Positions 8,116 through 36,076 of a stretch of DNA of 60,000 nucleotides are shown here, piece after piece. The position numbers and the translations under genes are program-made. The notes under the pieces were generated by a model that saw only the letters and a list, made by a program, of their open reading frames with translations, was not told the DNA's origin and did no database searches. Location: contig CM119373.1 in the NCBI GenBank assembly GCA_051294905.1, positions 5,892,001 through 5,952,000 on the forward strand, written 5' to 3'. The stretch's first letter is position 1; the number at the start of each line of letters is the position of its first letter. Source of the DNA: Botryllus schlosseri. Taxonomy: Eukaryota.

Positions 8116-8271
8116 GCGGTTTCGACCTCACCATCAAAGGCTGGGGATCTGAAGACGTGCTGTTGTACAGGAAGTACAGCCGTTCGCCGAAATACCAGGT
8201 CATACGAAATCCCGTCGACACTTTGTTCCATCACTGGCACCCGAAGCACTGTGACAAATCGCTTTCGTTGG
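8116..8271 (+). CDS. CSGALNACT: CSGALNACT coding exon
   Basis: cacag|...|gtaaga; GGFDLTIKGWGSEDVLLYRKY...LFHHWHPKHCD; GWGxED motif of the GT7-like domain. Confidence 0.95.
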
Positions 8272-13800: not shown

Positions 13801-13942
13801 ATATCATGTGTATGGTATTGTACATTGTACGCCTATGTCTTGAGCTGATAAAAATAATAAAACCGCTGATCATATACCGATTATACAGCATTCCAGATGC
13901 TACTCAGATTATGAATGTCCTTAACATTTGTAATATGTCGAC

Positions 13943-16530
13943 TAGGGTGGAGTGAAAAATGAAAATTTTTGAATTTGAAAAAAGGGTCTTGATATGTGGT
14001 GCCAAATAGTAAACAAATAAAATCTATCATAATTTTGGGTTCGTACACCCTCTAGTGGTCGTGCAATTTCACCGAACGAGCCAAAGACAGCTAATTTCGC
14101 CATATCTTGATCATCATTTACACTAGAAAGTCAGTTTTGGGCTTAAAAGATGCAGAAGCAACATGTTTCTATCTCACTTCCATAGAACTTACTTTTAAAA
14201 ATGAACAGAAAAAAGTTACAAGCAAATTTCTGATTTTATAGGTAAAATTAAGCACTGAAGCATTGGGTAGGATGTCAAAAGCGTGTAGTGATTGATCTTA
14301 TGACTGAGCAACATACCCTATAAATTAGAACTACTTTTCAAAACTTGCTCAAACAAATGAAACCCCCTCCAACCATAAATAGGGCTCGGGCATCGAATAG
14401 AGACTGCTAAAACTGTATTTAATAGTGTCCATTGGTAGTGCAGCGTCACGATATCGGTAAGTTTATAACAACGGCCCTCATGAGATTTCTTACCAAAATG
14501 CTGTCGTAGGGTTTGTATCATATTTGTCACAAAGCTCCTGAATGAAAGCACAAAAATTGAAAATACACATTCAAAACACAAACATCAATTCTATACTGCA
14601 AACAGAAAAATTTTGTAGCAGTATCATATGAGTATCAGTGTGCACAAACATTAAAATCATGTTTAGTATTGAAAGATTTCATCTGCTTTTAAGACTTCAG
14701 TTTTTGTATGATGAGGCTATCTCCACGTTTAAATCCTGAAACATGGGTAGATGCTTCAGTAACCATGTTTTATTGTTTTTCCACTGCCTGGTTGTGGCAA
14801 GGATGACTGAGCCTCAATGGTGATGATCTTAGGTTTTCCACCTCGACATCTGACGAGGTCTTGATTGCAGGCGGCTGTTCAATATCTTTTTGGTTCAAGT
14901 TGACAATTTGGTGGAAAGATTAAGCGCCGATGTTGATAACTGGAATTTGGAAGAAACTGATGCTCAATGTCGCTGTTTTTAGGTTTGGTGTCATTTATAT
15001 ATCTTCCTTCAAATTCATAATTGGAATTTGGTATGGTGTGGTTGTTCTGCGCATAGCTGTAATCTTGTTAACTGTAAACTTCGGACGTTTCCCTCCTCGT
15101 CACCAAAGCATTCCCAGCAAAATATTTTCTGGATGTTCTAAATGAGCATTTCTTCGTAGCAAAGATAGTACAAGGGAGTGAGTTCGGGAATCGGTCAGCT
15201 TTGTGACACGGGAAACTATATTGTGGAAATTTTTAGCACCATCTACAATGGAATTGTGCATTTTTATTTCAAACCATGACGGAAAATAGACCTCCACGCA
15301 GAATTGAGCAAGACAGTTCAGATTTCTCGATGGACGACTCTGTCCCACATAGTACTTTGAAATTTGAGATGCGAGAGTTACCTATATTGAATGAACGACG
15401 TGCCCAGCCTCTAAATATTTCAGATCTGGTTCCAATTGACGACTTTGAAGGAGGACATATAAATGAAACCAAACCCTAAAGCAGCAACATTGACACCAGC
15501 ATCAGATTCTTCCAAATTCCAGTTATCAACATCAAGGCTTAATCTTTCCACCAAATTGTCAACTTAAACCTCAAAAATATTGAACAGCCGCCTGCATCGC
15601 AATCAAGACCTTGTCTGATCACGAGCTGGGAAACCTATGATCATCACCATTAAGGCTCAGTCATCCTTGCCACAGCCAGGCGGTGGAAAGACATGTGACA
15701 GTGTTGATTTAAGCATCTGCTCAATGTTTCAGGATTTAAACGTAGAGATGACCTCATCAGACAAAAACTGAAGTCTTGAAAGCAGATGAAATCTTTCAAT
15801 ACCAAACATGACTTTATTGCTTGTGCACACTGATACTCATGTGATACTGCTACAAAAATTTTCTGTTTCCAGTTTAGAATTGATGTTTGTGTTTTGAATG
15901 TGTATTTTCAATTTTTGCGCTTTAATTCAGGAGCTTTGTGATAAATATGCTACAAACCCTACGACAGCATTTTGGTAAGAAATCTCATGATGGCAGTTGT
16001 TATAAACTTACCGATATCGTGATGCCGCACTACCGATAGACGCTGTTTTAAATACAGTTTTAGCAGTCTCTATATTCGATGCCCGAGCCCTATTTATGCT
16101 AGGAGGGGGTTTCATTTGTTTGAGAAAGTCTCGATAAGTAGTTCTAATTGATAGGGTATGTTGCTCAGTCATAAGATCAATCACTACACGCTTTTGACAT
16201 CCTACCCACTGCTTCAGTGCTTAATTTTACCTATAAAATCAGAAATTTGCTTACAACTTTTTTTCTGTTCATTTTTAAGAGTAAGTTCTATGGAAGTGAG
16301 ATAGAAACATGTTGCTTCTGCATCTTTTAAGCCCAAAACTGACTTTCTAGTGTAAGTGATGATCAAGATATGGCGAAATTAGCTGTTTTGGGCTCGTTCG
16401 GTGAAATTGCACGACCACTAGAGGGTGTACGAACCCAAAATTATGATAGAATTTATTTGTTTACTATTTGGCACCACATATCAAGACCCTTTTTTGAAAT
16501 TCAAAAATTTTCAATTTTCACTCCACCCTA
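13943..16530. mobile_element. Foldback (palindromic) non-autonomous hAT element with transposase C-terminal remnants in both arms
   Basis: TAGGGTGGAGTG termini; perfect TSD atgtcgac (13935-13942, 16531-16538); ~1.09-kb inverted arms; remnants HPENILLGML and PCHNQAVE/PCHSQAVERH, which I recall from hATm-like transposases. Confidence 0.92.
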
Positions 16531-16776
16531 ATGTCGACTTTCAACCCTCCTTAACTCATTTTCTCGCGGGAAAGATGAGAAGTTCATTTACGGCACCCTG
16601 TCGAGAAGCACTGGTCCAGGATTTTATGATGGAAAAGCATTGTTTATATTACATACGCCAGTCGCATTGCCGAAATCGTTTTATTCAATAAAATACGCAG
16701 AAACACAAAATTGGAAACAAAGAACAGGGCACTTGCGTGGCAAGGATTCAAAAAAATCAAACATCTTCTCCATATT

Positions 16777-17352
16777 TCAAGAAGACTCGTCATCATCGAT
16801 GCCAAAGTCAATTGGAATTGCCCCAAGTTTTTCGTCGAAACGAGATTTGCTGTTTCCTAAGTCGAAATGCTTGATTGCTACTTCGTCCGATCGGTCGGGT
16901 GAGAATATATCTTTGCTGAATCTTGCCTCTTTTCTCTAGAAAGGTGACAAAGTGACTGAATTAGCGTCACCACATTTTGTGTATATGCATAAATAAATGT
17001 GCATAAATGCATAAACACGGCTGAAATGACGTAGGCCTACCTGTTTAATTCTTTTTCGCATGGCCCCACGGTACGGGTCGCGACACTTGGACCGAAATGT
17101 TTTGGTCTTCGTTGTGTTTTCCGACTCTTCGAACAGACTCCAATGGCGTAGAAACTCATCAAGAGCGCGTTCGGTGTCGCTGTTCTCAAATCGCATGGTT
17201 CCGCTGAAATAAAATAGTACTTATGAAACGGTGCTATATTAGACAGTTCAATATTGGTGCTTTAAACGGAATAATAAAGACGTAAATCAGGATTCCGTTT
17301 GCAAAAATTTCGCCGGGCTGACTTGCTTTTCTAGCTGTGCGTCCATATTCAT
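16777..17352 (-). pseudogene. Orphan gene family, copy 1 (probably splice-defective)
   Basis: Exons 17297-17352, 17041-17203, 16777-16935; reading frame open, but the GTGAG donor of the first coding exon is removed by a ~27-bp deletion relative to copy 2. Confidence 0.7.
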
Positions 17353-19119
17353 ATCTTTATTTCGGGCAAACGACTATAACTTATCAAACTGAAAAAAGAA
17401 TAATTTATATTTGTTAGTGTCTTCGATCTTACAATCATTGTTTGCAATAATGGTGTCCAACTGTAGGAGTTGTAAGCTTGATTATCATGTTTCTGCACAT
17501 ATACTCTGTATATCAACACGCACATCTAATAATTCCCAGTAAACTATCTCTCTCTGCGAAGTGAAGCCAAAGACTGCCAACAAGCAATGTGAGTGATCGC
17601 ATTATGTAGGAGGTTTATAGACAGGTTGCTTGTCGTGGATACCGAAATGCATCCCGCTGATTCAAAGTCTGATTGCGAAACAAATCAGATGAAGCGCCAT
17701 CGCGTAAAATTTATTGTCATACAGGAGCAACCAATTTAAGTTGGCGGAATCGATTCTATTTGAAGTCGTTTACAAAGTAATTCCATTCATTAACCTGATT
17801 CATCAAATGTGCTTTATATATCCGATAACACAAGTTCTGTATGAAGTTCAGTGGTTCTTCAAACAAACAATCGCTGATGCGCTTTTAATTCTGCATTTGA
17901 ACGGAATGAAATTTTTCTTTCATCAGCTCTCTCTGTGATCACATCAAGAAGCTGCGCATCATTTCAATCAGGGCCTATCATGTTTTGATCCGAGATTCAT
18001 TCCTTAGAGTTGCTTCAGTTTATTTTATTACGTAGAACGCTTACACGGGTTGTTTAGAAATATGCCGCGAGGTGAAGTCACAAAATGACATCGTTTTCTA
18101 AATCCTTGCAAACGACCGTATGTTGGCCTGTGGATTCGTTGTCAAAAACGGTGAATATGTTCTTTCTTCCTAACAAAAAATCGAACGCCCTGTCACTATT
18201 ACGCGTAGTTACCCATCCAGAATTAGGTTCCGTCAGGGTTCGAAACCCGACTTACTTACGTTTTGCTCGCTCAAATTGCGTAAAAAACACGATCCTGCGC
18301 GTTGTTATTATGAAAATCAAAACCTGTTGCGCGAATTCATGTTTACTAATCAATTACGTATAGCCTGTGATATTGTAGTTATTATAGTTACTATAGTTAT
18401 TATAGTTATCTATAGTGATATCGTCATACTAATCCTCATAATTAGGTAGTACCAGGAATTTCCCTTCGCGTGTGACTGTTGGGATGCTTTGTGTAGCCTG
18501 CGAGTGCGGGATGAATCGGGCAATATGGTGCCAGCCATTTCGTCGACGATTTTCGCTCCAGTTCATACCGAATTTCGGCCAATTTGCGACGCAGCGAAGT
18601 ACTTTATCAAAGTGCCAGTGGCGATTAAAGCTTGCCACAAAATGACATCTGCATGTCGTCGGAAACCACCGATGAGGATAAGTCTTGGTTTCGAAATAAT
18701 CAGTGTGGAATAGCCTTTTGTCCTCGCGAATTGATGCGGCCATTTAAAAATGCTGTGTTATGTTGTGTTCGTCTCAATAAACGATTTTTCAGTTTTTTAT
18801 GGTGATTGTAAGTAATGCCAATAACATAATCTAATAATTAGATAATAGACAATCTCGATTTGTCGCATTATTATTGAACGTCGATTGTCAAATTAAAAAG
18901 ATGTGCCACACGCTGCAGCACATCCACGGAATGTCCTGTTTTTGATACTCGCGCGAAAATATTAAACCCCTTTTGTATCAACTGTTCTCAGACGGGTTCT
19001 GCAGATCTGGATTAGTTCCACAGCGCACCATCCGTTATAAATCAATACCATATCTACAACCAGTTTGTCATTATATTCTAATACAGCTGTAGGCAACCTT
19101 TTTTGGTCTGCGGACAGCG

Positions 19120-19627
19120 CAGTATAATGAGCATCGGAGCGGAGTCGGAGTGGATTCGGAGCGGAGTTTTGCCGATTTTGTGACAGTCGGAGTGGAGTCG
19201 GAGTTTACTACAGATATTTTTTCGGAGTATTGTAACTTTTGTCTCCGATATCTTTGGATAGCTCTGACCAGAATACACTATTGATTATGATGACAAACCA
19301 AAACACAGACAGTTGACACCTTGCAAAGTTGTAATATGACGGGTAACATGCAAAAATGATTGCCAAGTGCATAAAAATCAGCCATCTGCACTGCAATTGG
19401 GGAACTAGAGTAAGCAATACTATGAGGCAAACCATATTATCACATGTACCATGTTGTACCATGTGTACCATGCACCATGCTTGCCACTGTTTCGGATACT
19501 TGACGAGATTCATCGGAGTATCTCGGAGTCTGGGATTGAGCTCTTCGGAGTCGGAGGGAGTTTTCCTCAGACACTAAAGTTGTCGGAGGGATTCGGAGTC
19601 TCGAAAAGCACTATTCTCTCATCACTG
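19120..19627. mobile_element. MITE with GGAGTCGGAG arrays
   Basis: CAGT...ACTG ends, flanking cggacag duplicated, interrupts an older Charlie-like end; related fragment ~42067-42230. Confidence 0.65.
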
Positions 19628-21659
19628 CGGACAGGTCTCAAAATTATTTTATTTTGCATACTTATAAAACATATATGATCAAAATAAAAAATGTGTTGCA
19701 ACTGCATACACTATGATTGATAGTGATTCCTAAGTTATGCGTCTCGAACCAAATATGGGCCGTGAATGGTATAATCACACCAGAGCGATTGTTTAATGCA
19801 GGGTCGGCAACCTTTTTTGATCGGCGGACCGGTGTCAAAATGCAATATATTCCACTAAACTTGATCGACGACGAACGGACTGCATGGTAACGAGCGCACC
19901 AATATCGAATTTCAAACCATTGGGTATATTTGGTAGAAAGTGGATTTCTGCTGTTAAGGTCGCGACATGCGCTCATTTAGGCAGTTATACTTGAACAAAT
20001 CGCACCATTTGAAGATTAAATTAGACTGTATGGCTTGATATGGAAAAGCGCAATGCCGGTATGAAAACAATACGTCACTGTTTTCAAGCTTACAACGTGT
20101 ACATAGCAATAGCATGGAGTAAAGTGCGTTCTCGTACGGCTATGATGTCATCCACAGACAGCACGAAGTAATTACACGTCACCGGACTTTACATACCCAC
20201 AATATGACGCGTCCTTACGACGGCAACAATTGAGCCGAGCTGGAGCCGGAACAGTGGTATCAATGTGCTCCGGAGCTGGTACCAGAGTTAATTTATGATA
20301 GAAGAGAGCTCCGGAGCTGGAGCTGGAACTCCCCCCCCCCCGGACAACGAATCTAGTGCCAGCGGCCCCCGACACCCCCTGACCACGCCTATATCATAAA
20401 ACGAATGTTGCTATGCATTTATTGCAGCTAAAAAATGAGACGGATGAAGCTGGTGTCTTGACACACTGCTGGTCAACACATATATTTTTAGTCAGACAAA
20501 GTAAGAGTGGTTTTAAGGGTTCTGAAGGGCACTGATTCCGAATATGACCTTAGTTTTTTTTCAAATTGGCTCTATTTTTTGGAGTTCATCCATGGGGATA
20601 TTGGCACGTAACTATGGAATTTTCCGGTACAGCTGAATAAATAGACGAACGACCCTTGCCCCAACTCAGTGGTTCGCAACCATTTTCCACCAACGTGCCA
20701 TGTCGAGGTTTTATGCAGTGATCGCGTACCGACTACATAAGTTACGCGCGCCGAAAGCGGTCAAAAATGTTTCCACCGCGTTGAGCTGCCGAAGGCAGGG
20801 AAACAGGAAACAAACTGCCCATTTTAAGGCGCAGTATATGGTTTCTGTGATGGGTCCATTTGGAATTCTAGAGGTCAAATATATTAAAACGGAATATAGT
20901 AAGGTAATAAGAATCCCAATTTTTTACGACTAGATCTCTTCCCCATAAGCCGTCATTGGTTGAATTGTCCCTACCCACGACGACAACCTAACCAAGACGA
21001 CGACGGCTTCAGGAAACTCAAAATCAACCCAACCTTAACTAATAACTTCTATTCCCTACTGGCGCACCACCTGGCAGACCTTCGCGTACCACTAGTGACT
21101 AATGGTACGCGTACCACAGGTTGAGAACCACTGCCCTAACTGAATCGATTCTGCATTTTTACTGTGAATTTAGCTGATTTTTTTTATCAATCGCGTCAAC
21201 ACTACTCAGCAGTTACCTTGTAAACCTACACCGCCCCCATTTGCTCTCAGCGCCTCTCCCCCCTACAACCGCCCAATTTAATGGCCGACGACCCCTGCAT
21301 GCTCGCGAACGCCCCCAGGGGCGCTGGCGCCCACTTTGGGAACCACTGATGTAAACTCTGGTTCTAGAGTTCTAGATATCCCTGATATAATCTAACGATT
21401 ATTATTGATTATATTGATTGAATGCCCTTAACATTTGTAATATGCCACCACTGGTTTGGTTTTTCGTGATGCATTTTCCATCATAAAAAGGATAGCTTAA
21501 ATTCCTTGGCAATCGCGTCAATCCATTGTTTTATTCAAACAAAATACTTAGAAACAAAAAATGGAAAACAGTGTTTTAACGTATCGCGTTACAGGAAACG
21601 GTATTGCGATCCCACTAGCTTGGCAAGAATTCAAAGAGATTAAATATAGTCTTTCTATC

Positions 21660-22373
21660 TCAAGAAGACTCGTCATCGTCGACGCCGAAGTTAATCGGAA
21701 TGGCCCCGAGTTTTTCGTCGAAACGAGATTTGCTGTTTCGTAGAACAAAATGCTTGATTGCCACTTCTTCCGATCGATCGGGTGAGAATATATCTTTGCT
21801 GAATCTTGCCTCTTTTCTCTGCAAAGGTTACAAAGTGACTGAATTAGCGTCACCACATTTTGTGCAACAAATAGGTCACATTATAGCAAATCATATTGGT
21901 CATGTAAATATAAAGCATGTGCCTGTGATAGCCGTTTGAGCTGCGCTGATCGTACAAATGTGCCGAGAAAACGAAGTATAGGGATAACTTTCATGCATAA
22001 ATACAGCTGGAATGACGTACCTGTTTGATTCTTTTTCTCATGGCCCCACGGTACGGGTCGCGACAGTTGGACCGTAATGATTAGGTCTTCGTTGTGTTTT
22101 CCGACTCTTCGAACGGACTCCAATCGCGCAGAAACTCAGCAAGAGCGTGCTCTGTGTCGCCGTACTCAAATCGCATGGTTTCACTGAAATAAAATAATAC
22201 TTATGAAACACATCAGTGCTAAATTCAACCCTATATATTTCATTTTGGTGTTTTAAACGATATAATAGGTACGGAAACCATCAGGATTCCAGTACAAAAA
22301 TTAAACTAAATTCTCACGTTTGCAAAAATTTCGCCGGGTTGACTTGCTTTTCCTGCTGTGCGTCCATATTCAT
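21660..22373 (-). pseudogene. Orphan gene family, copy 2 (premature stop)
   Basis: Exons 22318-22373, 22021-22183, 21660-21818 with canonical GT-AG; in-frame TAA at 22081-22083 where copy 1 has AAA. Confidence 0.75.
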
Positions 22374-24863
22374 ATCTTGACGGACAGACTACTATTACAG
22401 GCCTTTATATAACTTATTGTTCCACTGAAAAAGAAGAATTGACATTAGTTAGATCTCCGATGTTGCAACAAGTTGGGTCCAAATGTAGGACTTCCAAGCT
22501 TTAATATCATGTTTCTCCACATATAGCCCACGCTGTATATATCTACACGCAAATATAATAATTTCTAATAGCCTATCTCTCTACACGAAGTGTAGTCAAA
22601 GACTGTCAACAAGCAATGTGAGTGATCGCATTATGTAGGGGGTTTATATATTGCAGTATAGTAGTCAGGTTGTTTGTCATAGATAACCAAACTGCATGGC
22701 TTTGATAAAGTGACTTACGGATGAATAGACATCCTGCCGATTCAAGTCTGGTTGCGGAATTATTCAGAATATTTGATATCACCTTCTTCCTCAGTGATGT
22801 ATAAGACATCATAGGGAGAGCGCTGGATGATACCGGGGCGGCAGAGATAAGAGAGAAGCGCCATCGCTTAATATTTGTTATCATACAGGAGCAACTAACT
22901 TATGTTGGCGGAATCGATTTTATTTGAAGTCGTTTACGTAGTGATTTCATTCATGTATCTGATTTATCAAACGCCGTTTATATCTAACAACACATAAGTT
23001 CTGAATAATAAATAGTTCGGTTGTTCTTCAAACAAACATGCAGTCATTGAAGTTTTCAATGTTGCATTTGAACGGAACGAATTTTTTTCTCATCAACCAT
23101 CCCTGTGGTCACAACAAAAAGCTGCGCAGCACTTCAATCAGACCGTAAATACTTTGTTTTAAGATTTAGGCTATTCCTGGGAGGTATTTCAGTTTATTTT
23201 ATTACACATAAAGCTTGCACAGATTTTTTAGAGCTGTGCCGCGACGTGAAGTCATAAAAATTTGCATCGTTTTCCGAATCCCGAACCATGGTATATTGGC
23301 CTGTGGATTATTTGCTATATACGGAGAATATGTTCTTTGTGGCTGACGAAAAATCGATCGCTCTGCCATTCTTGCGCAATGTCAGCCATCCAAAACCAGG
23401 CCCGATTGGGGTTATTACTTTTTTTTCGCTCAAATTGCGTAAATTAGAGAAACCTGCGCATCGTTATTATGAAAGCTCAAACCTGTTGCGCGTAATTCAT
23501 GATTTCTATTCAAATATTTAGCCTGTGATGTAAAGCGGCGCAATCCGGGACATGGACCGAGGCAGGACTGGATATCCGATAGGATTTTTTCACTTTTGGT
23601 ATGAGCTGGATTCATACTTCTTCATGATATGGCCGGAGTCGGATCAGGGCCGGATCGTATACTTCAATTTTTTAATTCTTTTTCAGAATTGCGATTGTGG
23701 CTATTGATGAGCGTGGCCGTTGCAACTACGTATTACGCTCTAGTAGCCGCCAAAACAAGCCTGTGTTCAATACAAAACTGAGTTTGTTTTGCTTTCATAT
23801 TTTTTGTATTGTTGCAATGCCCAATGAATCACGTGAACCCGTACCGTATGATCTATTGCTGGGGTGCCCAACCTGCGGCCGTAGAAGGGAATTTGTGCGT
23901 CCGCATCCGCGGACTCGATACGCACTTATACTATGTATTGGCGGCCGTCGAGATGCAAGTTGAATTTACGAATAGACTCCCGATTTCTTGAAAGATTTTA
24001 ATTAATCCTGAAATTTTCTTTGCGCTGCGCGCGATCAATGTGACTTAATTTTTCGATTTAATATAGGGGCGCTCATTGCAATCATAGCCTTACAGTACAG
24101 AGACGAACAGCAGAGGAAAATGATGCATCTCATATAGAAATACCAACTCGGAATCGTGTGCTCCTCATTATACCGTCAATCCTAATGACAGGTCAAGAAT
24201 TAACAGCATGCAACAAAGTGACTTATACCAATTGGCCCACCCGAAGATGCATCATCATATGTAATTTGCCGATACCGTCTCAATAATGGTCACATTTTAC
24301 ATACAGAGCCGAAACTGCCAAATCCTGGAACCCACGACAATTGAAGACCATCTCAAAGCAGCCACAACACTATTTCCCGCATAATCATTGATTTCCCAGC
24401 ATATCAATCCAACTTAACAATTTCTGTTATTTCCCCTTGCGTGATTGATTGATTTAAGGATTTCTATATGAATACGCTCTCCAGCAAAGACGCCTAATTT
24501 ACTACAGAAACGAGTCAAACGGTGTCTGTTTTTGATACTCGCGCAAATGAATTATACCCCTTTCGTATCAATTGTTCACAGCCGGTTTCTGCAAATCTTG
24601 ATTAATTCCGCAATGCGCCATCAGTTTGACATCAATATCATATCCACAAACCGTTTTCCAAGATATTGCAATACACCAACGGCAACCTTCTTTGCTCTCC
24701 GGGCCGGTCGGTTTTTAAATTTATTTAGTCTACAATTTAATCCCGTTACATTAGTTAAGTCCACTGTGAATAGACGATTTGGCAATTATACTTCATTTGT
24801 GCAGCGTTTACCCGTTGTTACCCGCGTTATTATCACAGCAGATTCGCAACAACGATTACCAGG

Positions 24864-26035
24864 TAGGGAAGGTGTGAACTATAGTGCGAAGTGGATCGAC
24901 AAGTTCCTTGGTCCTGCTCCGATCCTGTTTTTGAAGCTCTGGTCCGACTCCTAGGCCGGATTCTAGAAATGACTGTGATCTGGTCAAAATATCCGATAAT
25001 AATTATCTAGACACAGGATGGTATTGAGTATTGATTGAAACAATGCAAACATGACAATAAAACTCAAAGATCAAGCCCAGCTCTTGTCTAAAGTAATTAT
25101 GCAAACTTGGACATAGCTTGTGGTTTATTTCCATGAACGTTTCACTTTACCTATTAATTCGAGGGTAAAAAGTTCTTAGTAAAAAGTACTGATCCGGCTC
25201 CGATCCGACTCCGGCCGTGTCAGAAAAAGTATTGATCCGGCTCCGGCAAAAAATGAGAAAATCCGGTCGGATATCCAATCAGACTACGGTCCATTTTCCG
25301 CCCTAGTGCGGACCCAGAAAGGTTCAAGTTCGTGAGAGCGCGAACCTTTTTGAAAGATGCTGTGTGAACGCGAACGTGAACCTATGACGTCATATTGCTT
25401 ACTCCGACCCTACATTTCAGTGAAGTGATATACTAAAGTATACAATACCAAGAGACGACTCAGGTAACAATATGCCACATAGCTGAAGTAAATGCTGACT
25501 TTTTAAAATCAATATCTTTGGTCACATTGCCGATAATTCCGGGGAGAAGCTTACGCAATCCGGGTTTTTATGATGCAATAAATGTATCATAACGAGACGG
25601 ATCCCGCACGCATGCTAGATTTTTTACATTATAGACAACGACGTATGCTTGATATCAATTTCATTGATTGGTTGAATAAGCATCATTCGCTGACTGCCTA
25701 CTGTCCAGTGTCCACCTACTATTTCGTTCTTGGAGTTGTGTAATTGCGGATCGTGCTCAACGCAGAGAGTCACTACATATTCACGAACGGAAAGCTATAT
25801 ATTTCAAGCAAACTTTAGTGACACACCAAGAAAAAATTTGAGATTGGCAAGGTGCATGCTCGTTTAGTGTTGGTTATTTTTATGCTGCCAGCGCCAAGCG
25901 CAGAGTGGTCCGAAGTTGAAATGGAAATATATTCAACTAACGATGTTATAATGACGTGAAAAATGTTATATATGAGAAAGGTTCACGTTGCAGAACCTAC
26001 CCAGGTTCATTTATGAACGCGAACCGCCAAATTTC
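24864..26035. mobile_element. Older truncated copy of the TAGGGATGGTGTGAAC MITE, interrupted by a GATCCGG-motif MITE (~24882-25304)
   Basis: Inverted homology to 26825-27819; left TIR tagggaaggtgtgaac present, right TIR missing. Confidence 0.65.
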
Positions 26036-26113
26036 TTTCCGTGACTTCCAACGGTCGAGTAGGCTCAGACTCGTGGTTTCATACGAACTGTTATGACTTT
26101 GACCATTTCCCAG

Positions 26114-26431
26114 GTCGTCGTCAGTGACTCCGGCAACAACCGAGTTCATGTTTTCGATTCGTACGGCCGCTATCTTCTACAGCTGGGAACGATCGAGACT
26201 CAGATCGAGGAACCGACAGGAATCACCACAGATCATCACGGCAACATTATCGTCGTCGATGGCAGCAACAAAAAGGTTCAAGTTTTCACGAGCGAGGGGG
26301 CCTTCGTGTCTTGCTTTGGGAGCGAAGGTTCTGAGCCGGGACAGATGAAGGATCCGAAAGGAGTTTGTCTTTTGTCAGACGGCGGAATCGCGGTCAGTGA
26401 CGGTGGCAACCACTGAGTCCAAATTTTTTGA
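26114..26431 (+). pseudogene. Isolated terminal exon of an NHL-repeat (TRIM2/3/71-like beta-propeller) gene
   Basis: cccag|VVVSDSGNNRVHVFD...PTGITTDHHGNIIVVDGSNKKVQVF...PKGVCLLSDGGIAVSDGGNH*VQIF*; about 2.5 NHL blades; TGA at 26414-26416 replaces the expected Arg of NHRVQIF; no upstream NHL exons seen. Confidence 0.8.
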
Positions 26432-26824
26432 GCGATATGATTCTTGTGTCCGACCTGGAGATGTTACAATTCTTACTGTGCATTCTTTTCATTCACGTTT
26501 GCGCTATGTTCATTACATCTACATGCAGGTGCGCAGCAATCGTTTTCGTAGTTGTTCATTTCCCAAAGCGTTGAAACAGCGTCCGAATACGCTGATCAGG
26601 GTCCACCTAAACCCGATGAATGCCGAACATGAAGACTATACTAGGAGTTTTGAAGGAGTCGATACACGGATTGAAAACGTACACAATGGCCACATATTAC
26701 CTCGACATGTAACCAATTTCCAAAGAAAACACATCCGATAGGACGTTCATGGTATCTCGTGCTTGCAATGAGACATATTGATAAGCAAAAATCATATGTT
26801 CGATAGCACTTTCGTGGTAACTCG

Positions 26825-27819
26825 TAGGGATGGTGTGAACGTGAGGTTCACGTTCGCGTTCTGTGTGTGAACCTCGAAAATTTAGAGGTTCGCGTTCACA
26901 ACAGAACCTTGGTAGGTTCTGCACTGTGAACCTTTTGGTAAGTTGTAATTTTCACTCCATTATAAGATCTTTTGCTCAAATTTATTGCATTTCAACAGCG
27001 GGCCACTCCGTGCATGGTGCTGGCAGCATAAAAAATCAACGCTTAACGAGCATGCACCATGCACTTCGACAACCTTAAAAGTTTTAGTTGCTTTGTTGTA
27101 AAATTTTTCTCGGAATAACCAGCTTTCCGTTTGTGAATATTTAGTGACTCTCTGCTGTGAGCTTGACCCGCAATCACACAACATTACGAGCGATATACGT
27201 AGTCAGCGAATGATGCTTATTCAACCAATCAATGACATTAATACCGTCTTCTGATATAAAAATTCGAACGGGCGTACGGGGTCAATCTTGACTTCATATC
27301 TTTACTGTATCATTAAAACCAAATCCGTGCGATTAAGGTGCTGGCTACTGCTGCATAACTTGTTGTTGCTTGTGGTATCGGTAGCGAGTATGGAAACCCG
27401 TACACTCTGCTCAATATCAATGTAGCAATACTCAGACTCCGAACACATTGTCCGGTCTGGCTAAGACCATTAAGGCGTAAGCTTATATTCCTCGGTAAGT
27501 CCTCGTCGAAATTGTTGGCAAAGCGACGGAATGTATTGATTTTACGCAATTATTATATCTTTTGATCACCGCTGTTGATACATTTAGCGACGTTTAAAAC
27601 GCCGATATGTACTTCAGCATTGTGGCATTATGTGGACCGAGTCTTCGCGAGGTATCGTGTACATTAATATAGGCTATCACTTTATTGGAAGATATGGTTG
27701 GAATTAGCAATATGACGTCACGTGACGTCACGAGGTTCACGTTCGTGTTCACACAGAACCTTTCAAAAAGGTTCGCGTTCACACGAACCTGAACCTTTCA
27801 GAGGTTCACACCATCCCTA
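26825..27819. mobile_element. hAT-type MITE with GTGAAC/GTTCAC arrays
   Basis: 16-bp TIR TAGGGATGGTGTGAAC; perfect TSD gtaactcg. Confidence 0.92.
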
Positions 27820-27939
27820 GTAACTCGTTAATTTTTGGCGTGACAAATACAGATAAGTACGGCCACGTCGTTATACTCTCGTATCTATGAAATGGGCCTA
27901 CTTATATATGTGTTGTTCTGAAATTACACTACGGCTGGA

Positions 27940-28457
27940 TTTTCCAGATTAGCAAGACACGTAATGGGCTGCTAGATTACGATATGATTGGTAATTGCTA
28001 GATTGCGAAATGGTAGTTTCAAACGTTATGGTGGGCCATATTTACAGTGATGAAATATTTGATGTGGGTGACAATGCGGTGTGAGCGGAACCAAGCAATC
28101 CCGTACCTAAATAATATTCACTGATACTTTCCTGAAAGCATATTTGTCACTCCATAACTACTGTGCGCGAAGCGCAAACAAATTTCTGGGCTTTACTTGA
28201 CTTTTATGAATATGAAATGTTGGTACTCCGTGAAAACAGCCCCGAAATTCCTAAGGCTATCTTTCGTATTGGGGGATTAAACTACTTCTACTTGACTAAC
28301 TTAAAATATCGAAAAGTAAGTAAGTAGATCACAAAATATTACGAAGTAGAAAGAGAAGTAGAGAAAATCAGGTCTACTTGAGTAAGTACCAGAAGTAGAG
28401 GAAAACTACTTGAGTACTTCCAAAAAGTAGAAGTACTTCGTTAGTGACCACCTCTGC
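27940..28457. mobile_element. 3' half of the AGTAG-motif MITE
   Basis: Homologous to ~57340-57889; ends in TGACCACCTCTG. Confidence 0.75.
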
Positions 28458-29555
28458 TGTATATACATACACGACAGGTAGCCGCGTGCTACGCCAAGGT
28501 CATGCGCGCAAGGTCCGCCGAAAGATACGCACAATGCACAGCCAAGAATACAAGCAACCTTCAGGATTCAAATTACATAGGAATAACGTACAGACATTAG
28601 CTATGCGACAGGTAGGTGACGTAGTGGTCACATCCACCACCAACTACGCAGGGCAACCGGGTTAAATTCCGTAGCCGAAGGCGTTGGACGGCAGTGACGT
28701 GCGGCCACGAGAGGCAAGTGAAGCGGTGCCTCAACTGTCGCCAGGATGAGTAAAGGAAAATTGTGAAACCTTCAAGGATTATTGATATTTGCCGTCGATG
28801 TTCATGAATAACTGAATTTGAATATTTTTTCATCCAACATCAACAATTTTCATATTTATCATTCAGAAATACAGCGCGAAAGGAGATTTGAGGCACGAGA
28901 GGATCGTGCCTCATCTGCGGCAACGCACTTCATCATAAACAGCTTAGAATTCGTAATAACCGGTATCAATCAAATGCTATTGTCACACAGATTCCTAAAA
29001 CCCGAGTATTAACAATCGTAGAGCACTGAATCTCCTTCCAAATCACCAAAGAATTTGAAATTCGGCATTATTGCGTACAATGGAAGCGCAGAGAAACGAT
29101 AGCCAGGTGAGTCACAATCGAATCAGGCGCGAACACTATTCACTAACAATCGTACAATCACAGCGGAGCGCGCTATCGATTTCAGAAAGCGGCAGTATAA
29201 TGATGTATGAATTGTATATAGCGACGGCCAATACGTAATGCGGAGAAAATACATTCCCTTGCTGATGTAGCTGTTATGTGTTTTTCATCCATACCAACCT
29301 TTAATTGTGGTATTTGATAGCCATAGTAGTTTCTTACATAGCCTGCATTGTCGTTGTTTGTGACCTGTACGGTGTTTTTGACTACAATAGTCATCTATAC
29401 CAGGTCGATATTCCATATTAGGATTCCATATCTAACGACTTCTAGCACGGACAACTTCTAGGCTTTGTAGCTTATCTTCATTAAAAACCATATAAAAATT
29501 CCCTAAGTTCGACTAAAATAACGACCTCGTAGCTACCCCATCGTTCTGCCTAGAG

Positions 29556-30217
29556 CAGTGGTTGCCAACTGGGGAGGGGGAATTCCCCCCTTAGGGGGGA
29601 TTCTGGCTTTAGCGTCACAAGGTTTTTAGATTTTTATGGTAGAACTGTAAAGTATGGAACTAGTTCTTAGGTATTAAACTAGTTCTTTAAAAATTGTATG
29701 TTTTTTGGCAGATTTTGAACTAGGTGTATGTTTAAATGCCTTCCGTAGATATTAAACCCACTGATAAAGTGAGGCTCGCGAGACGATTTCGTTGGGCCCG
29801 TGACAGCCTCTCGACCATATTGCTACTAAACAGGAAAAAGTCAAGCCGAATTCACCACAAGTCCGCTGGTGAAAATGTTTGCCTTTTTAAGCCAACGAGC
29901 TAATGTGAAAAACATACCAAATTCCCCGATTCAACTCAAGGCCATAGCAAGCGGACTTGGTGATTTATTTTTCGTCAGCGCCTACCCGACCGATAAAAAC
30001 AGGTCAGATTTAGCTGTACTTTACCAAAGTGTAGTGTGGTCCGCATTCGACATAGTTTGTACGTATCTGAATATGTTTGGCCATATATTGCTCGGTCAAC
30101 AAATGGTTGTGCGTTAAAAAGCACCTTTTATAGTCACAGGGAACCTTTTCATATCGGTAATTTTAGCTGAAATATCGGTCAAGGGGTCCATGAGACGAAC
30201 AAGGTTGTGAACCACTG
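29556..30217. mobile_element. hAT (Charlie-like) MITE
   Basis: CAGTGGTT...AACCACTG termini; TSD gcctagag/gcctagtt. Confidence 0.75.
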
Positions 30218-31103
30218 GCCTAGTTCATAGACATTATTTTGTAGAAGTTCATTGTGACACCACGGTGTATCATCCAGATGCCACCACTGATCATCCCCTC
30301 ATTTTAAAAAACTTGGTACCGAGTTTCCATCGCCCTAATGTACTCGCGCAATCGTTCGTATTGTTCGGCACTAACTGCACCATTTGCAAGTATTACACTA
30401 AGTAGCTTCCTCAAAGAGTTCGATGCTTTCAAAAGGTTCCGTCAGGCGAACACAATGTGCTATATGAATTGACGGACGATATATTTTGCCGTGCAGCAAT
30501 ACATCTTTTTAACTTCTCTTTGAATAGTCTATGAAAATTCACCACGCTAAAATAAATCACCACTATTGAGACGTTAGTGAAGGTGTCCATCTAATTTGAA
30601 TGCGCCGTTAAGGCCCAAGCTTCGTATTTGATTTGAATTGTCATGGACATCTTCCCCAATCCCGTTTATTTTTTATTTTATCTTGAGAAAAGCTGCTCTC
30701 ACTTTTCGTAGGAAAGAGATAAATCTTTCACTGCTCGTTGAAACGTTATTGAGTAAATAGAATTACTTAAGAACTTTCTTCTAGTTTGTATCCTGACTCG
30801 GCAGAATCAGTGCTGTATCTTGAACTTCCTTCAGCACCACTGTATCCAATACCACTGTAAACAGATACAAAACCATCATGAGGCGGAAGCGGAACGTACA
30901 ATAAAGCATTGTTTTGGTACATGCCTCCTCGCTCAGTCTAAGTTAGGATATAAAATTGTCCTTTTTGAAGAATACCCTTGCACATTGATGTGGCAGACAT
31001 AGCAATCCTGAATGTGGTCAATGGGTCTTCGCCATATCGTGGGAACAGCAAAAGACATCGACGATGTTCGTTTGGGTAGCCAATTGTGTTGACCAGTTGA
31101 ACA

Positions 31104-33837
31104 ACGTGTGCTGCGTTTGAAAAATAATTTTCAAAGATCAAACATGTTTTAACTGTTTTTGTATCGATTTTTTGCGCTGAACTAAAAATTCCAACCAGTT
31201 TTTTCCAATCAGGTCAAGTTTTCCTTCGTGACATATTCAATTATTCTAGCTTTTGGTCATCATTGTACACAAATAAACTAATTTTTGTTGTAGCCTAATT
31301 GGTTATACATGTTGTCAATTTTTGCAATATGGTATTTATATTTGTTTAAATAAAGCAATTACAACTAACCAAGAAATCAGAATTTTGTTCAATGGCACTC
31401 AACCTAACAGAAGAAGGTAGAAGTCATTAATATGTTGCACTACAGATACGGAAACAATACAAGATACAAATTAATTATGCTGACAATAAATTTCGCTTCA
31501 AAGACTCTCTTCAATGTTTGGAGTTATGTGCGGATCTCTCCTTAAGTACCAAAGACAATCTGCAAACATGTTTACGTCCGTGTGTCCTTGAAACATTTCT
31601 TCGATCTGGCAAAGGTCTTGGTGGAATCTCTCTCCTTGTTCTTCGCTGTAATCACCACAGTTGACTGGAAAGTAATCCTAATGAGAACAGAGCAAGTACA
31701 TTTTCACAGACATCCGGGCTCTAAGGGATTGAAAGATTGCAAGCTTCTCTTTGACCTGTTCTTCGTACTCAGCGCTTCTAAGCTTTCCAGGAAATTTTAA
31801 ATTACTACTCGAAAAGCGGTCCGCGGTCTTTTTCTACTGCACCCATGTGTGCAGTGAAACCTTCGACTTTGATCAGTTCACAGATCTGTGGCTTATCAAA
31901 GACTCCTCTGATCATAGCTGCACTTCAGAAATACGGGAAAGTCTGATTTGTAATAACTTGAAGGCTGGGCCATCTTTATCAAGTGCCCAGGTATAGTATT
32001 TTTATGAGACCAAGTTTAATGTGGAGAGGTGGCAAAAGAATAGTTTGTGGATCAACTAAGCAAGGATATTTGACATTTTCAAAAGCAGATGTAAAACCTG
32101 TTCTGTGTGGCCAGCAAGTTTCTGAGCAGTGGTGATCATCAGCCCTCGAGTTCCACGGACACAAAAAATGGAGGCTTAGTGTAACCGGACTGTGACCCTG
32201 TGAAGAATTATCGAAATCATTTTCAAGTCACCAAATATTTTCCATTTGTGTTGGCTATACTGAAGAGGTTTCGAAAGGAATTCCATGTATTCATAGCATA
32301 CAGTGAGCTTCACTGAATGTCCAATTGTCCAGCAGAAACAGAACCATTATGTCATTATGTAGTAATACTTCCTTCAAACTCTTAAGAGGTGAGTCCAAAA
32401 ACAATCGTCGTTCTGTCGATCTGTTGACTATGCCCAACGCGGATATTACTCCTGAAACATCTTTACAGTATACTATGGGGCAGTGGTCGGGAACCTATGA
32501 CTCGCGCGCCATATATGGCTCTTTTGGGTATAAGATATGGCTCTTTGACAATTGTCTTTATTTTGTCAACTTAATTTATCAATATTGCGGAAACTTGTTA
32601 GTAAATGTTCGTGATGACCCGAATAATTATTCTCGTGACAGCATAAACATGTCTCTGAGAGGTCAAGACAGTGGGGTAACCAGAGTTAGGGTACGTACCC
32701 CCCTTTTTAAAATATCTAAATTTAAGTTGCTGTCGCGCCGGAATTCGAACAACCCGCCATCGCGCGCCTCGAAATCTTGGATTGCACGATACCTTGACAT
32801 GGCGACGTTTGCAGGACAATGCACTTTTCAAATACACATTGCCTTCCTGATCTACGCCGATAAATAAACTTCCTTGGAAGTGACAGTAGCAATTATACAA
32901 ATTAAAATTAAAAACAACACCATAGCTATCCAAGTTCTTGATTGGGAACGTAAGCAGCTTTCTAGAACTGCCGTAAATGTAGGTGTGTACCGTTATATTA
33001 CCCCGAATACTTTAGAAGTCGATAAATATTTAACTTCTCAGAATCAGCGCGACAGTTTCATTTGTATATTATCAGTGAAGATAAATTCTAAGGTATATAC
33101 GATGAGTTGCGCTATCATAGGTGAGTCTTGACCCGTCTGTGCCTTAACTCTCCTTTCGCGCTTTATTTTCGAACAATGATTATGAAAATTTTGTGAGTTT
33201 GGGAATATAAATGTTTAAAATCTAATCATTCACAAACATCGATAAAAAATACCAATTATCTTTAGGGTTTCACAATTTTCCATCACTCATCACTGCCGAC
33301 ATGTGCGGCACTGCCTCACCGGCCTCCCCCAAGTCCACGTCACTGACGTATCACACCGTGCAATGGGTAGGTATTGCTGTAGTGACCATGTTTGGCACGC
33401 CCTACGCATGTGGGCAGAAAAATATGGCCCACATTACGAATCCCATGTATTAGTGCTACCAATACGTCACGAATTTTCAATTGTGACGTAATAGTTGATT
33501 GACATGTATAGCTTTCTGCGAGTTACAATTGAAAATATTGGGTCGATATGGCTCTTGGGTCAAAAAAGGTTCCCGACCCCTGCTATAGGGAATGGTCTTC
33601 GTCATAATTAAAATACTTTCTACACTTTTAATCAAAACTTCATTGCGAAATCATTTTATGACGTCACAAATCTTAATCACATAACGCTGAAATCTGCAGT
33701 TTTCGAAAATTCAAATGGAATTTGCCAAAAAACTAGAGCTGATTGAAGAAAACTGATAACAGTTTTGGATTCAGCATCAAAAGTCCACTAAGAACCGTCG
33801 ATATAGTTTACTAACCTCACAATAACGCAGCACAGTG
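31104..33837 (-). mobile_element. Fossil DNA transposon with decayed transposase (CMC/Chapaev3-like by recalled motifs)
   Basis: Minus-strand remnants ~31540-32430: SGYTK, LVDPQTILLPPLHIKLGLIK, GERFHQDL...FQG...MFADCLW; inverted ends tgtgctgcgtt...aacgcagcacagtg. Confidence 0.7.
32481..33582. mobile_element. hAT (Charlie-like) MITE nested in the fossil transposon
   Basis: CAGTGGTCGGGAACC...GGTTCCCGACCCCTG; TSD ctatgggg/ctataggg. Confidence 0.85.
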
Positions 33838-34168
33838 TTATTGATTATATTGATTGAATGCCCTTAACATTTGTAATATGTCGACTTCAACCCTCTTTAC
33901 CTCATATCTCGCGGCACCACGTGAGCAGTCAAATCGCGGCATCCTAGATGAGAACCACTGGTATAGTTTTTCATGATGCATTTTCAATCATAAAAAGAAT
34001 AGATTAAATTCCATAGCAATCGCGTAAATCTATTGTTTAATTCAACCAAAAAATACTTAGAAACACAAAAATGGAAAACAGTGTTTTAACATATCGCGTT
34101 ACAGGAAACGGTATTACGATCCCCTAGCTTGACAAGAATTCAACGAAATTAAACATCGTCTCGTTATC

Positions 34169-34907
34169 TCAAGTAGACTCGTCATCGTCGTCGCCGAAGT
34201 TAATCGGAATGGCTCCGAGTTTATCGTCGAAACGAGATCTGCTGTTTCGTAGAACGAAATGCTTGATTGCCACTTCCTCCGATCGGTCGGGTGAGAATAT
34301 ATCTTTGCTGAATCTTGCCTCTTTTCTCTGCAAAGGTGACAAAGTGACCGAATTAGCGTCACCACATTTTGTGCAACAAATAGGTCATACTATAACAAAT
34401 CATATTGGTCATGTAACTATAAAGCATGTGGCTGTGATAGCCGATTGAGATGCTGTAATCGTACCAAGGATATCTAGATCTAGATAACCATGGATCGTAC
34501 AAATGAGCCGAGAAACCGAAGTAGGGATAACTTTCATGCATAAATACAGCTGAAATGACGTACCTGTTTGATTCTTTTTCTCATGGCCCCGCGGTACGGG
34601 TCGCGAGTTTTGGACCGTAATGTTCTGGTCTTGGTCTTCGTTGTGTTTTCCGACTCTTCGAACGGACACCAATGGTGCAGAAACTCAGCAAGAGCGCGCT
34701 CTGTGTCGCCGTTATCAAATCGCATGGTTTGACTGAAATAAAACAGCACTTATGAAACACAGCGCTAGACACTTTAATATTGGTGCTATAGACGGAATAT
34801 TAAAGACGGAAATCAGGATTCCTATTACAAAGAATGAAAATAAATTCTCACGTTTCCAAAACGTCCGCCTGGATGACTTGCTTTTCCTTCTGTGCGTCCA
34901 TATTCAT
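34169..34907 (-). CDS. Orphan gene family, copy 3 (intact, 127 aa hypothetical protein)
   Basis: Exons 34852-34907 (acceptor at 34928), 34564-34732, 34169-34327, all GT-AG and phase-compatible; MNMDAQKEKQVIQADVLETQTMRFDNGDTERALAEFLHHWCPFEESENTTKTKTRTLRSKTRDPYRGAMRKRIKQRKEARFSKDIFSPDRSEEVAIKHFVLRNSRSRFDDKLGAIPINFGDDDDEST*; start codon is inferred. Confidence 0.75.
34465..34492. mobile_element. 28-bp TIR-only micro-element
   Basis: CAAGGATATCTAGA|TCTAGATAACCATG between aatcgtac and gatcgtac; paralogous intron of copy 2 has a single gatcgtac. Confidence 0.8.
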
Positions 34908-36076
34908 ATTTTTATTTCGGGCAGACGACTATTCCAGGCTTAACTTATCAAACTGAAAAAGTAAACAGTTAAATCTTCGATCTTGCAATAGTTGATTGCA
35001 ATAATGGTGTCCGAATGTAGGAGCCGTAAGCTTTATTATCGTGGACATATGCTCTCCACAGCCTATATCTACACACATATCTAACAATTCCTAATACTCT
35101 ATCTCTCTTCACGAAGTGTAGCCAAAGACTGTCAACAAGCTTTGTGAGTGATCACATTATGTGGGCGGTTTATATATTGTAGTATGTAGACAGGTAGTTT
35201 GTCGTAGATTACCGAAATGCATGGCTTTGATAAAGTTGACTTTCGAAAAAATAGACATCCTGCCGATTTAAGTCGGGATGCGGAACCATTCAGATGATTT
35301 GATAGTAGGCCTATACCTTCGTCCTCAGTGATGTATAACACATCATAGGGAGAGCGCTGGATGATACCGGGGCGGCAAAGATAAGAGAAAAGCGCCATCG
35401 CTTGATATTTGTTATCATACAGGAGCAACCAATTTATGTTGGCGGAAGCGGTTCTATTTGAAGTCGTTTACGTGCTGATTTTATTCATTTGCCTGATTTA
35501 TCAAATGCAGTTGATATCTGACAACACACGAGTTCTGAATAATAGTTCGGCTGTTCTTCAAACAAACATGCAGTCATTGATGTTTTTAATGTTGCATTTG
35601 AACGGAATGAAATTTCTCTCTCATCAAATCTCTCTGTGATCACATCAAAAAGCTGCGCAGCACTTCAATGGGGACCTTTTATATTATGTTCCGAGATTCA
35701 TTCATTGCAGTTACTTCAGTCTGTTTTATTATATAGAAGAACGCTTGCACGGATTCTTTAGAATTATGCGGCGAGGTGAACTCAAAAAAGTGGTATCGTT
35801 TTGTAAATGCAAATAAACGGCCGTATGGTGGCCTGTGGATTCTATGCAATATACGGTGAATATGTTCTTTCTACCTGACAAAAAATCGATCGCTCTGTCT
35901 TTGTTACCCGCTGCCACCCATCCATAATCAGGCACGGTCAGGTTTTGAAACCCAACTTACTCACTTTTTGCTCGCTCAAATTGTGTAACGCAGAGAAGCC
36001 TGCGCATTAACTTATTATGAACGTCCAAACCTGTTGAGCGTAATTTATGCTTTCTAATCAATTATAGCCTGTGGTG

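Follow-up and report, generated by a model that had tools for sequence, protein, structure and literature searches.

Tandem copies of a candidate orphan gene for a small charged protein in the ascidian Botryllus schlosseri

A 60,000-nucleotide stretch of Botryllus schlosseri DNA (contig CM119373.1, positions 5,892,001 to 5,952,000; hereafter the window, numbered from its first letter) carries three minus-strand copies of what the evidence supports as a lineage-restricted small protein-coding gene, formerly under purifying selection. With modest confidence, we favor the reading that the trio is an ascidian orphan gene cluster in birth-and-death, whose product would be a small, mostly disordered, charged and probably nuclear protein. 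Decayed copies beside intact ones, with expression unproven, are a common pattern in young tandem gene clusters. Like orphan tandem clusters of this kind, the locus combines local tandem copies, for which single-exon searches gave no credible outside relative, with past purifying selection, intact and damaged copies, and partial homogenization; unlike them, it encodes a protein for which our searches returned no described orphan family, and the trio is a set of predicted genes.

Sequence comparison within the window recovered all three paralogues where a first-pass annotation had placed them. Self-BLAST gave a duplicated unit larger than the one described there, with ~2.1 kb of unbroken similarity (75–88% between units, promoter and 3′ flank included) and collinear remnants further upstream of each unit, as expected of local paralogues that arose by segmental tandem duplication:

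16531..18371, minus strand: duplicated unit of copy 1; its 3′ flank resumes at 13912–13942 past an inserted transposon, and upstream remnants lie at 18485–19845
21402..23530, minus strand: duplicated unit of copy 2; upstream remnants at 24380–24817
33838..36076, minus strand: duplicated unit of copy 3; upstream remnants at 38244–39239 and 41193–41297

An ascidian protein-coding gene restricted to its lineage would thus have undergone two tandem duplications together with its promoter and flanks, in a cluster that now appears to be turning over. An Rfam search of the window returned only a tRNA (55524–55606).

The first-pass annotation had described three spliced genes, each encoding a ~127-aa protein from three phase-compatible exons common to all copies. 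Exon 3 is indeed 159 nt in all three copies with an identical TGA stop, and poly(A) signals (AATAAA or ATTAAA) begin 92, 125 and 128 nt past it, close to the ~100–130 nt given earlier. Both introns are bounded by GT-AG in copies 2 and 3, but copy 1 has no intron-1 donor. Since copy 2 also contains a premature TAA, only copy 3 encodes 127 aa, and the three-exon frame with canonical splice sites is intact in one of the three copies. The gene models are as follows:

17297..17352, minus strand: copy 1 exon-1 remnant; donor deleted, TGA reached after 21 codons
17041..17203, minus strand: copy 1 exon 2, 163 nt; an in-frame ATG at 17196 opens a 104-aa frame
16777..16935, minus strand: coding portion of copy 1 exon 3, 159 nt, TGA included
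16680..16685, minus strand: copy 1 AATAAA
22318..22373, minus strand: coding portion of copy 2 exon 1, 56 nt, followed by an intact GT donor
22021..22183, minus strand: copy 2 exon 2, 163 nt, broken by an in-frame TAA
22081..22083, minus strand: copy 2 premature TAA at codon 53, 60 nt ahead of the last junction
21660..21818, minus strand: coding portion of copy 2 exon 3, 159 nt
21530..21535, minus strand: copy 2 AATAAA
34852..34907, minus strand: coding portion of copy 3 exon 1, 56 nt; private site changes comprise 6 replacement and 0 silent
34564..34732, minus strand: copy 3 exon 2, 169 nt, with a 6-nt insertion in frame
34169..34327, minus strand: coding portion of copy 3 exon 3, 159 nt
34036..34041, minus strand: copy 3 ATTAAA

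In copy 1, the first 27–29 nt of intron 1 are deleted, the donor among them, and because of this loss the frame runs into the TGA. Five GT and nine GC sites were tried as alternative donors: the only in-frame GT ahead of the exon-2 acceptor sits beyond the TGA, and the three in-frame GC sites before it all have poor context. Splicing to exon 2 from a GTAAG at 17432 would keep four upstream ATGs, two of which overlap the exon-2 ATG in another frame. Between the exon-2 ATG and the stop, copy 1 is lesion-free, and the only product open to it is the one of 104 aa that begins at this ATG.

The exons downstream of that ATG bear the marks of protein-level purifying selection in the history of the family. 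From the exon-2 ATG onward, dN/dS across the paralogues was 0.23 for copy 1 versus copy 2 and 0.25 for copy 1 versus copy 3 (p ≤ 0.0003). Gap events are also deficient relative to the non-coding rate, with 1 against 7.0 expected in exon 2 (p = 0.007) and 0 against 6.9 expected in exon 3 (p = 0.001). Divergence from copy 1 amounts to 10–11.5% of sites in exons 2 and 3, versus 27% in intron 2 and the 3′ flank (p ≤ 1e-6), and in simulations an open frame outlasted a neutral branch of 0.10–0.19 in 0.5–0.04% of cases. Our recount of exon-3 codon differences agreed with the first-pass figures (9 silent and 5 replacement between copies 1 and 2; 4 and 4 between copies 2 and 3). The purifying selection proposed on that basis holds for copy 1 compared with either of the other copies; it does not extend to the branches leading to copy 2 (2 silent, 5 replacement) and copy 3 (3 silent, 10 replacement), both neutral-like, nor to exon 1, where no constraint is visible (the three branches together have 1 silent site change and 7 replacement ones). 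Copies 2 and 3 give a dN/dS of 1.2 over all exons. The branch to copy 1 holds 13 silent and 9 replacement changes (pN/pS 0.20, p = 0.0002), although in this unrooted comparison, which has no outgroup, it takes in the stem of copies 2 and 3, and pinning the constraint on copy 1 assumes a clock.

The constrained part is exons 2–3 (104–106 aa from the exon-2 ATG). Private changes in copies 1, 2 and 3 are evenly spread in the 5′ half of the unit, at 100/95/74, but very unequal in the 3′ half, at 78/16/21 (χ2 p = 1e-7); the 3′ halves of copies 2 and 3 are near-identical, homogenized by exchange, and both copies have been neutral-looking since. Taken at face value, these patterns suggest that, of the three, copy 1 has the best chance of still being functional, that copy 3 may be a relaxed working copy, and that copy 2 is probably a pseudogene.

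The earlier statement that the protein matches no recognized family held as far as single-exon queries (52–56 aa) go, since neither exon 2 nor exon 3 had a credible relative. Exon 2 yielded 30 candidates among proteins of 99–2000 aa, none at E ≤ 1, and its alignment yielded none among proteins of 29–98 aa. No match was found in Pfam at E ≤ 10 (0/5, single-exon halves), in PHROGs (0/4), in PDB sequences with exon 3, or with Foldseek using a low-confidence exon-2 model, and the ESM Atlas gave a usable match for neither exon. Three weak matches of exon 2 to PDB sequences were set aside, the best being NDUFA1 (E = 0.11) over a helix. An exact look-up of both exons and of a neighboring MFS gene returned 0/3; the MFS gene by itself gave one 44% match. 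A metagenome scan retained 1 locus of 217 candidates; it lies on a bacterial contig, its frame has nothing in common beyond the 8-letter seed, and it was dismissed as chance. By eye, the basic core recalls the CCT/NF-YA, bHLH and bZIP basic regions, a likeness without Pfam support in either half. Literature searches turned up no ascidian protein that fits.

The single match of exon 3 among 1.84 billion representatives, BRCA2, was not credible. Exon 3 resembles the BRC repeat (Pfam PF00634) in hydrophobic spacing over ~25 residues ending F-D-[DE]. The RAD51-binding motif of the BRC repeat is FxxA, which is absent here: neither protein model contains F..A, the Pfam search gave no PF00634 match, and the best single stretch reached 4.0 bits. 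Copy 3 scored a BRCA2 total of 41 bits, above all 200 shuffles (top 21.7), and copy 1 only 8.2 bits; the 41 bits are a sum over ~24 repeats, a repeat-sum artefact and not a relative. Against the BRC profile itself the score was 1.5 bits, within the shuffles, and the copies ranked 77th, 276th and 418th of 2,003 sequences, 2,000 of them shuffles.

The predicted protein is 42% charged, has no 19-residue stretch with hydrophobicity above −0.17, and is placed among unfolded proteins by the charge-hydropathy boundary. AlphaFold2, given single exons and alignments of 2–3 sequences, modeled exon 2 as two isolated helices (pTM 0.26) and gave exon 3 no fold (pTM 0.12). Around the exon 2/3 junction, in the 14 codons that close exon 2 and the 24 that open exon 3, all copies agree at 37 of 38 residues, with silent changes numbering at least 6. 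The three copies share an invariant K[KR]x[KR] motif, and a membrane segment is absent; this one 4-residue motif and that absence suggest that the product is probably nuclear. We tentatively propose a role as a soluble nuclear adaptor or regulator that binds by short motifs. Such a protein, of 12 kDa and mostly unfolded, would enter the nucleus via its basic helix and bind partners through an amphipathic helix early in exon 2, the near-invariant 38-residue basic core over the exon 2/3 junction with its CDK-type SPDR site, and an acidic-hydrophobic tail; the predicted nuclear localization and CDK sites are 4-residue patterns.

Three raw RNA runs from unspecified tissues were sampled at 3–13% each, with no clean control; their match to the species is based on a word share of 0.07 and on repeats mostly at 90–95% identity. 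All three gave 0 reads over bins 17061–17721 and 34247–34907, which cover exons 1–2 of copies 1 and 3, and roughly one fragment of copy 2 appeared in one of the three. None of the predicted junctions was among the 15 joints listed for these runs, which had 92 further joints.

All three copies could now be pseudogenes, the purifying signal being history and the working gene lying elsewhere in the genome, or the family being dead. The lost donor and the transposon in the 3′ flank of copy 1, the stop in copy 2, the changed initiator of copy 3 and the 3 silent and 16 replacement changes on its own branch all fit this view, as do the absence of exon reads in the RNA sampled and the ~14% of simulations in which an open frame outlasts a neutral branch of 0.04. 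Yet copy 1 keeps its 104-codon frame, both intron-2 splice sites, TATA, initiator and AATAAA, and its path shows 9 replacements where arithmetic from the branch counts predicts ~28 on its half alone if neutral under a clock; we regard wholesale death as unlikely, though with enough of a chance to be kept in view. At the opposite extreme, three working genes, each making the ~127-aa protein from three exons as first annotated, would demand that both the copy-2 stop and the copy-1 deletion, which are independent and differ in kind, be alleles or assembly errors, as they could in principle be. Copy 3 fits that model exactly, but exon 1 shows no silent excess and copies 2 and 3 evolve at the dN/dS given above, and we consider it barely plausible.

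The family might instead be a very divergent member of a known one, its recognizable domain lying across the exon 2/3 junction and hence missed by single-exon searches. The 38 best-conserved residues do span that junction, and every database query represented one half only; against this, the halves lack a credible match in Pfam, PHROGs, PDB sequences and the ESM Atlas, exon 3 has none among the 1.84 billion representatives, and the low hydrophobicity speaks against a folded domain, which together leave this explanation quite improbable. An origin in a mobile element with a small accessory gene, suggested by the repeat-rich window and by repeats adjoining the upstream ends of copies 2 and 3, is very unlikely. 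Because the 7 bins within the units have a depth of 0.3–3.4 in run X1, versus up to 15,332 in repeat bins, the units are low-copy in that run; similarity continues collinearly past the inserted repeats, in no unit does self-BLAST show an inverted match between one end and the other, and viral contig scans found no relative (0/122 and 0/26). Among 148 frames of at least 62 aa in the 8–43 kb interval, the only transposase match is a hAT fragment (37437–37655) outside the conserved units. Dispersed high copy number, terminal repeats and a linked transposase, the hallmarks of a transposon-borne gene, are thus lacking by run X1 depth, self-BLAST and the frames within units. Finally, the plus strand could be the coding one: no copy has a stop in the in-register antisense frame of exon 3, stop-free plus frames extend for 135, 106 and 106 codons, and copy 1 versus copy 3 gives a dN/dS of 0.31 in the antisense frame. 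In-register antisense frames have third codon positions in common, however, and it is on the minus strand that TATA and initiator align with the splice sites and the poly(A) signal; with a stop in the exon-2 antisense frame of copy 2 and no Pfam match, we give this next to no credence.

Returning to the orphan cluster reading, the upstream regions suggest how copy 1 might have survived its deletion. Consensus matches place the following elements:

17586..17619, minus strand: copy 1 predicted core promoter; TATAAA at 17619 (−29) and an initiator-like YYANWYY with A+1 at 17590
17389..17590, minus strand: copy 1 putative outron-like leader, 202 nt, 65% A+T, with 4 ATGs and a TTTTTCAG acceptor at its end
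22615..22650, minus strand: copy 2 predicted core promoter; TATATAAA (−31) and an initiator-like motif with A+1 at 22619
35141..35176, minus strand: copy 3 predicted core promoter; TATATAAA retained, initiator departing from YYANWYY

The TATA-plus-initiator geometry occurs at 4 sites in the window on both strands, 2 of which belong to copies 1 and 2. An unpaired acceptor lies behind each A+T-rich leader (193–202 nt, 62–65% A+T, well over ~50 nt); the leaders of copies 2 and 3 contain no strong donor pattern, and that of copy 1 has the single GTAAG at 17432, found in this copy only. PMC3074122 describes the joining of the spliced leader (SL) to unpaired acceptors and a trans-spliced Ciona gene with a TATA at −31, and PMC4691747 gives TATA positions of −32 to −29 and outron lengths with a peak near 100 bp and a mean of 438. 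SL trans-spliced ascidian genes with a TATA, such as Ciona troponin I (PMC3074122, PMC4691747), share with the copies here a TATA near −30 and an A+T-rich 5′ segment with upstream ATGs, followed by an acceptor with no conserved donor before it; the leaders here measure 193–202 nt against 459 nt (68% A+T) in the counterpart described there, and the RNA sampled here showed no SL read. No loose ends at the predicted leader acceptors were among the 24 listed (with 2,086 further), RNA reads being absent from those bins.

By this model, the TATA/initiator promoter would fire ~200 nt upstream of an acceptor without conserved donor, as for an SL outron. Loss of the intron-1 donor in copy 1 would also unpair the exon-2 acceptor, and an SL joined there would therefore place the exon-2 ATG 7 nt into the exon and drop the dead exon 1. 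SL trans-splicing may thus have rescued copy 1, by a switch of an internal acceptor after donor loss that would set it apart from genes of the Ciona troponin I type. The full version of this scenario, in which copy 1 is alive because the SL took over its orphaned acceptor and makes a 104-aa, ascidian-restricted, phosphorylation-controlled nuclear regulator built from short motifs while the intact-looking copy 3 decays, strikes us as rather unlikely, if worth stating.

The locus adds one unannotated orphan gene cluster, and its trio demonstrates that the copy with the intact frame need not be the copy under selection. Its product, small and easy to tag, would be a candidate nuclear regulator specific to ascidians. 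If the SL reading of copy 1 is true, a deletion that would have been lethal to the gene in an animal without trans-splicing took away an exon instead and left a shorter protein of 104 aa; and if copy 1 does use the SL at its former internal acceptor, the trio would be a natural before-and-after case of the conversion of an intron into an outron.

Self-BLAST and alignment resolved three units on the minus strand, some 2.1 kb long (approximately 16531-18371, 21402-23530 and 33838-36076), 75-88% alike through promoter, introns and 3' flank, bearing out the tandem copies proposed in the first-pass annotation (copies 1 to 3; 16777-17352, 21660-22373 and 34169-34907). Farther upstream, collinear similar pieces occur at 18485-19845 (copy 1), 24380-24817 (copy 2) and 38244-41297 (copy 3). 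The locus is a genuine cluster of tandem copies of a small, apparently orphan gene, the product of segmental tandem duplication that insertions later split. In the contig run X1, seven unit bins had a depth of 0.3-3.4, compared with as much as 15,332 over repeats; a single 238-nt contig spans 34866-35101, unspliced and with 19 differences. The unit is therefore low-copy in X1, and we regard a gene carried by a mobile element as highly improbable. The neighbouring features are as follows.

7932-8303, plus strand: chondroitin N-acetylgalactosaminyltransferase-type exon (Pfam CHGN, E=8e-11)
13943-16530: 2.6-kb inverted-arm element, arms about 1.1 kb and 91% alike, ends TAGGG...CCCTA
16532-16939, 21619-21939 and 34128-34448, plus strand: antisense frame in register with exon 3, open over 106-135 codons in each of the three copies
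26063-26432, plus strand: NHL-repeat exon standing alone between copies 2 and 3, its acceptor and stop present (Pfam NHL, E=1.6e-14)
37437-37655, minus strand: fragment of a hAT transposase dimerisation domain (E=6e-6), located between copy 3 and the remnant upstream of it
43527-44664: degenerate tandem array of a 43-bp unit, one copy partly inverted
45259-46653, plus strand: single-exon MFS transporter gene, 464 aa (Pfam MFS_1)
55524-55606, plus strand: tRNA gene, the sole Rfam match in the window

The inverted-arm element is flanked by an 8-bp target duplication (13935-13942 and 16531-16538), by which we take it to be hAT-like, and its frames gave no Pfam match; since the paralogous flank of copy 3 holds a single empty site (near 33865-33872), it inserted after the duplication. 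The 148 frames scanned over 8-43 kb held no further NHL or TRIM exon, and the NHL-repeat exon is matched by several diverged contigs; it may thus be a stray piece of some multi-copy family. The sole match of the MFS transporter is one unnamed protein (44% identity). Coding on the plus strand, where the antisense frames lie, we regard as hardly credible.

Copy 3 has exons at 34907-34852, 34732-34564 and 34327-34169, joined across GT-AG introns into a 127-aa frame. In copy 2 the splice sites are the same, but codon 53 is a TAA (22081-22083) that sits 60 nt upstream of the last exon junction, a position at which the 50-55 nt rule would predict mRNA decay. Copy 1 is missing, in the alignment, 27-29 nt at the start of intron 1, and with them the donor; its first ATG runs into a TGA after 21 codons with no in-frame GT ahead of it. 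The earlier proposal of three working 127-aa genes is not upheld, as only one of the three is intact in the three-exon model; with a premature stop in copy 2 and the donor of copy 1 gone, three live genes of 127 aa each are very unlikely. An in-frame ATG 7 nt into exon 2 is kept in all three copies, and in copy 1 it opens a 104-aa frame without lesions.

Between the exon-2 ATG and the stop, dN/dS was 0.23 for copy 1 versus 2 and 0.25 for copy 1 versus 3 (p<=0.0003), and 0.79 for copy 2 versus 3. The first-pass exon-3 codon-difference counts were exact on recount, and the purifying selection it claimed holds for both comparisons with copy 1, but neither for copy 2 versus 3 nor for exon 1, which appears unconstrained because its site changes comprise one silent and seven replacement (six of the seven on copy 3). 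Gap events number one in exon 2 and zero in exon 3, versus about seven expected in each. When codon changes in exons 2 and 3 were split by branch, with three three-state codons left out, the copy 1 branch, which takes in the stem of copies 2 and 3, carried 13 silent and 9 replacement changes (p=0.0002); the copy 2 (2/5) and copy 3 (3/10) branches match the neutral expectation. Donor-less copy 1 is thus on the sole branch showing selection. On arithmetic that assumes a clock, copy 1's part should hold about 28 replacements if neutral, against the 9 seen on the entire branch, so copy 1 was probably under constraint through most of its history. A rough simulation kept a frame open in 14% of runs when the neutral branch was 0.04 and in <0.6% when it was 0.10-0.19.

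Private changes of copies 1, 2 and 3 are even in the 5' half (100/95/74) and uneven in the 3' half (78/16/21; p=1e-7). Because the skew is confined to the 3' half, copies 2 and 3 were recently homogenised there, by conversion or unequal crossover; their divergence is 6.5% in exons 2 and 3 versus 9.4% in intron 2 and flank (p=0.17). Since homogenisation, the two copies show no clear constraint.

All three copies have a TATAAA about 30 nt upstream of an initiator-like site, which is a full YYANWYY initiator in copies 1 and 2 but not in copy 3; this geometry has four sites in the window on both strands, two of them copies 1 and 2. A leader of 193-202 nt follows (62-65% A+T, 2-4 ATGs), ending TTTTTCAG just upstream of the first ATG, with no donor conserved among the three copies. 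Such a layout is compatible with an outron, the 5' leader discarded by spliced-leader trans-splicing. Donor loss leaves the exon-2 acceptor of copy 1 unpaired as well, which could provide a route to survival; rescue of copy 1 by trans-splicing nevertheless seems doubtful to us.

Four runs were mapped to 16400-36200 at 88% likeness; their match to the species is based on a 0.07 word share and on repeats, and the coverage includes no clean single-copy control gene. The raw RNA runs, three in all and sampled at 3-13% each, had zero depth at 17061-17721 and 34247-34907, and copy 2 received about one fragment in one of the three. None of the predicted junctions was among the 15 joints listed (there were 92 further joints). 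Bins with most of exon 3 also contain repeats, and depth there is not interpretable; in these bins the single-cell run showed the lean expected of a minus-strand 3' end for copy 1 (6.08 vs 1.24) and copy 3 (2.11 vs 0.18), and the opposite lean for copy 2 (1.03 vs 2.79). The RNA read result counts at most mildly against broad expression. We find it unlikely that every copy is now dead.

The predicted protein is 39-42% charged, is placed with unfolded proteins by the charge-hydropathy line and has no hydrophobic segment. AlphaFold2, run on single exons, gave exon 2 (pTM 0.26) a helix over residues 7-21, where block pLDDT reached 82, and a basic helix over 47-54, and gave exon 3 (pTM 0.12) no fold. 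A core of 38 residues, 14 closing exon 2 and 24 opening exon 3, is the same in all three copies save one D/E change, across at least six silent changes; it includes a K[KR]x[KR] motif and an SPDR site that we take to fit the CDK consensus. Our tentative guess is that the product may be a nuclear adaptor or regulator acting via short motifs.

In agreement with the first-pass view that the protein matches no known family, exons 2 and 3, each searched singly, returned no credible relative. The conserved core crosses their junction, which speaks for a remote known family masked there, an explanation we consider improbable. The sole match was a BRCA2 (E=1.7e-5) whose BRC repeats number about 24; to it copy 3 totalled 41 bits, above 200 of 200 shuffles. 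We rejected this kinship as a sum of weak matches (best single stretch 4.0 bits; copy 1 total 8); the RAD51-binding FxxA motif is absent, and the BRC profile puts the copies 77th, 276th and 418th of 2,003.

Tandem clusters of orphan genes in which some members are damaged form a known class. The protein is so far unrecognised, and its expression, partner and function are all hypothetical. Our best reading, which we hold to be somewhat probable, is that of an orphan tandem gene cluster in birth-and-death, in which copy 1 is the likeliest still to be working and would encode a predicted small nuclear regulator.
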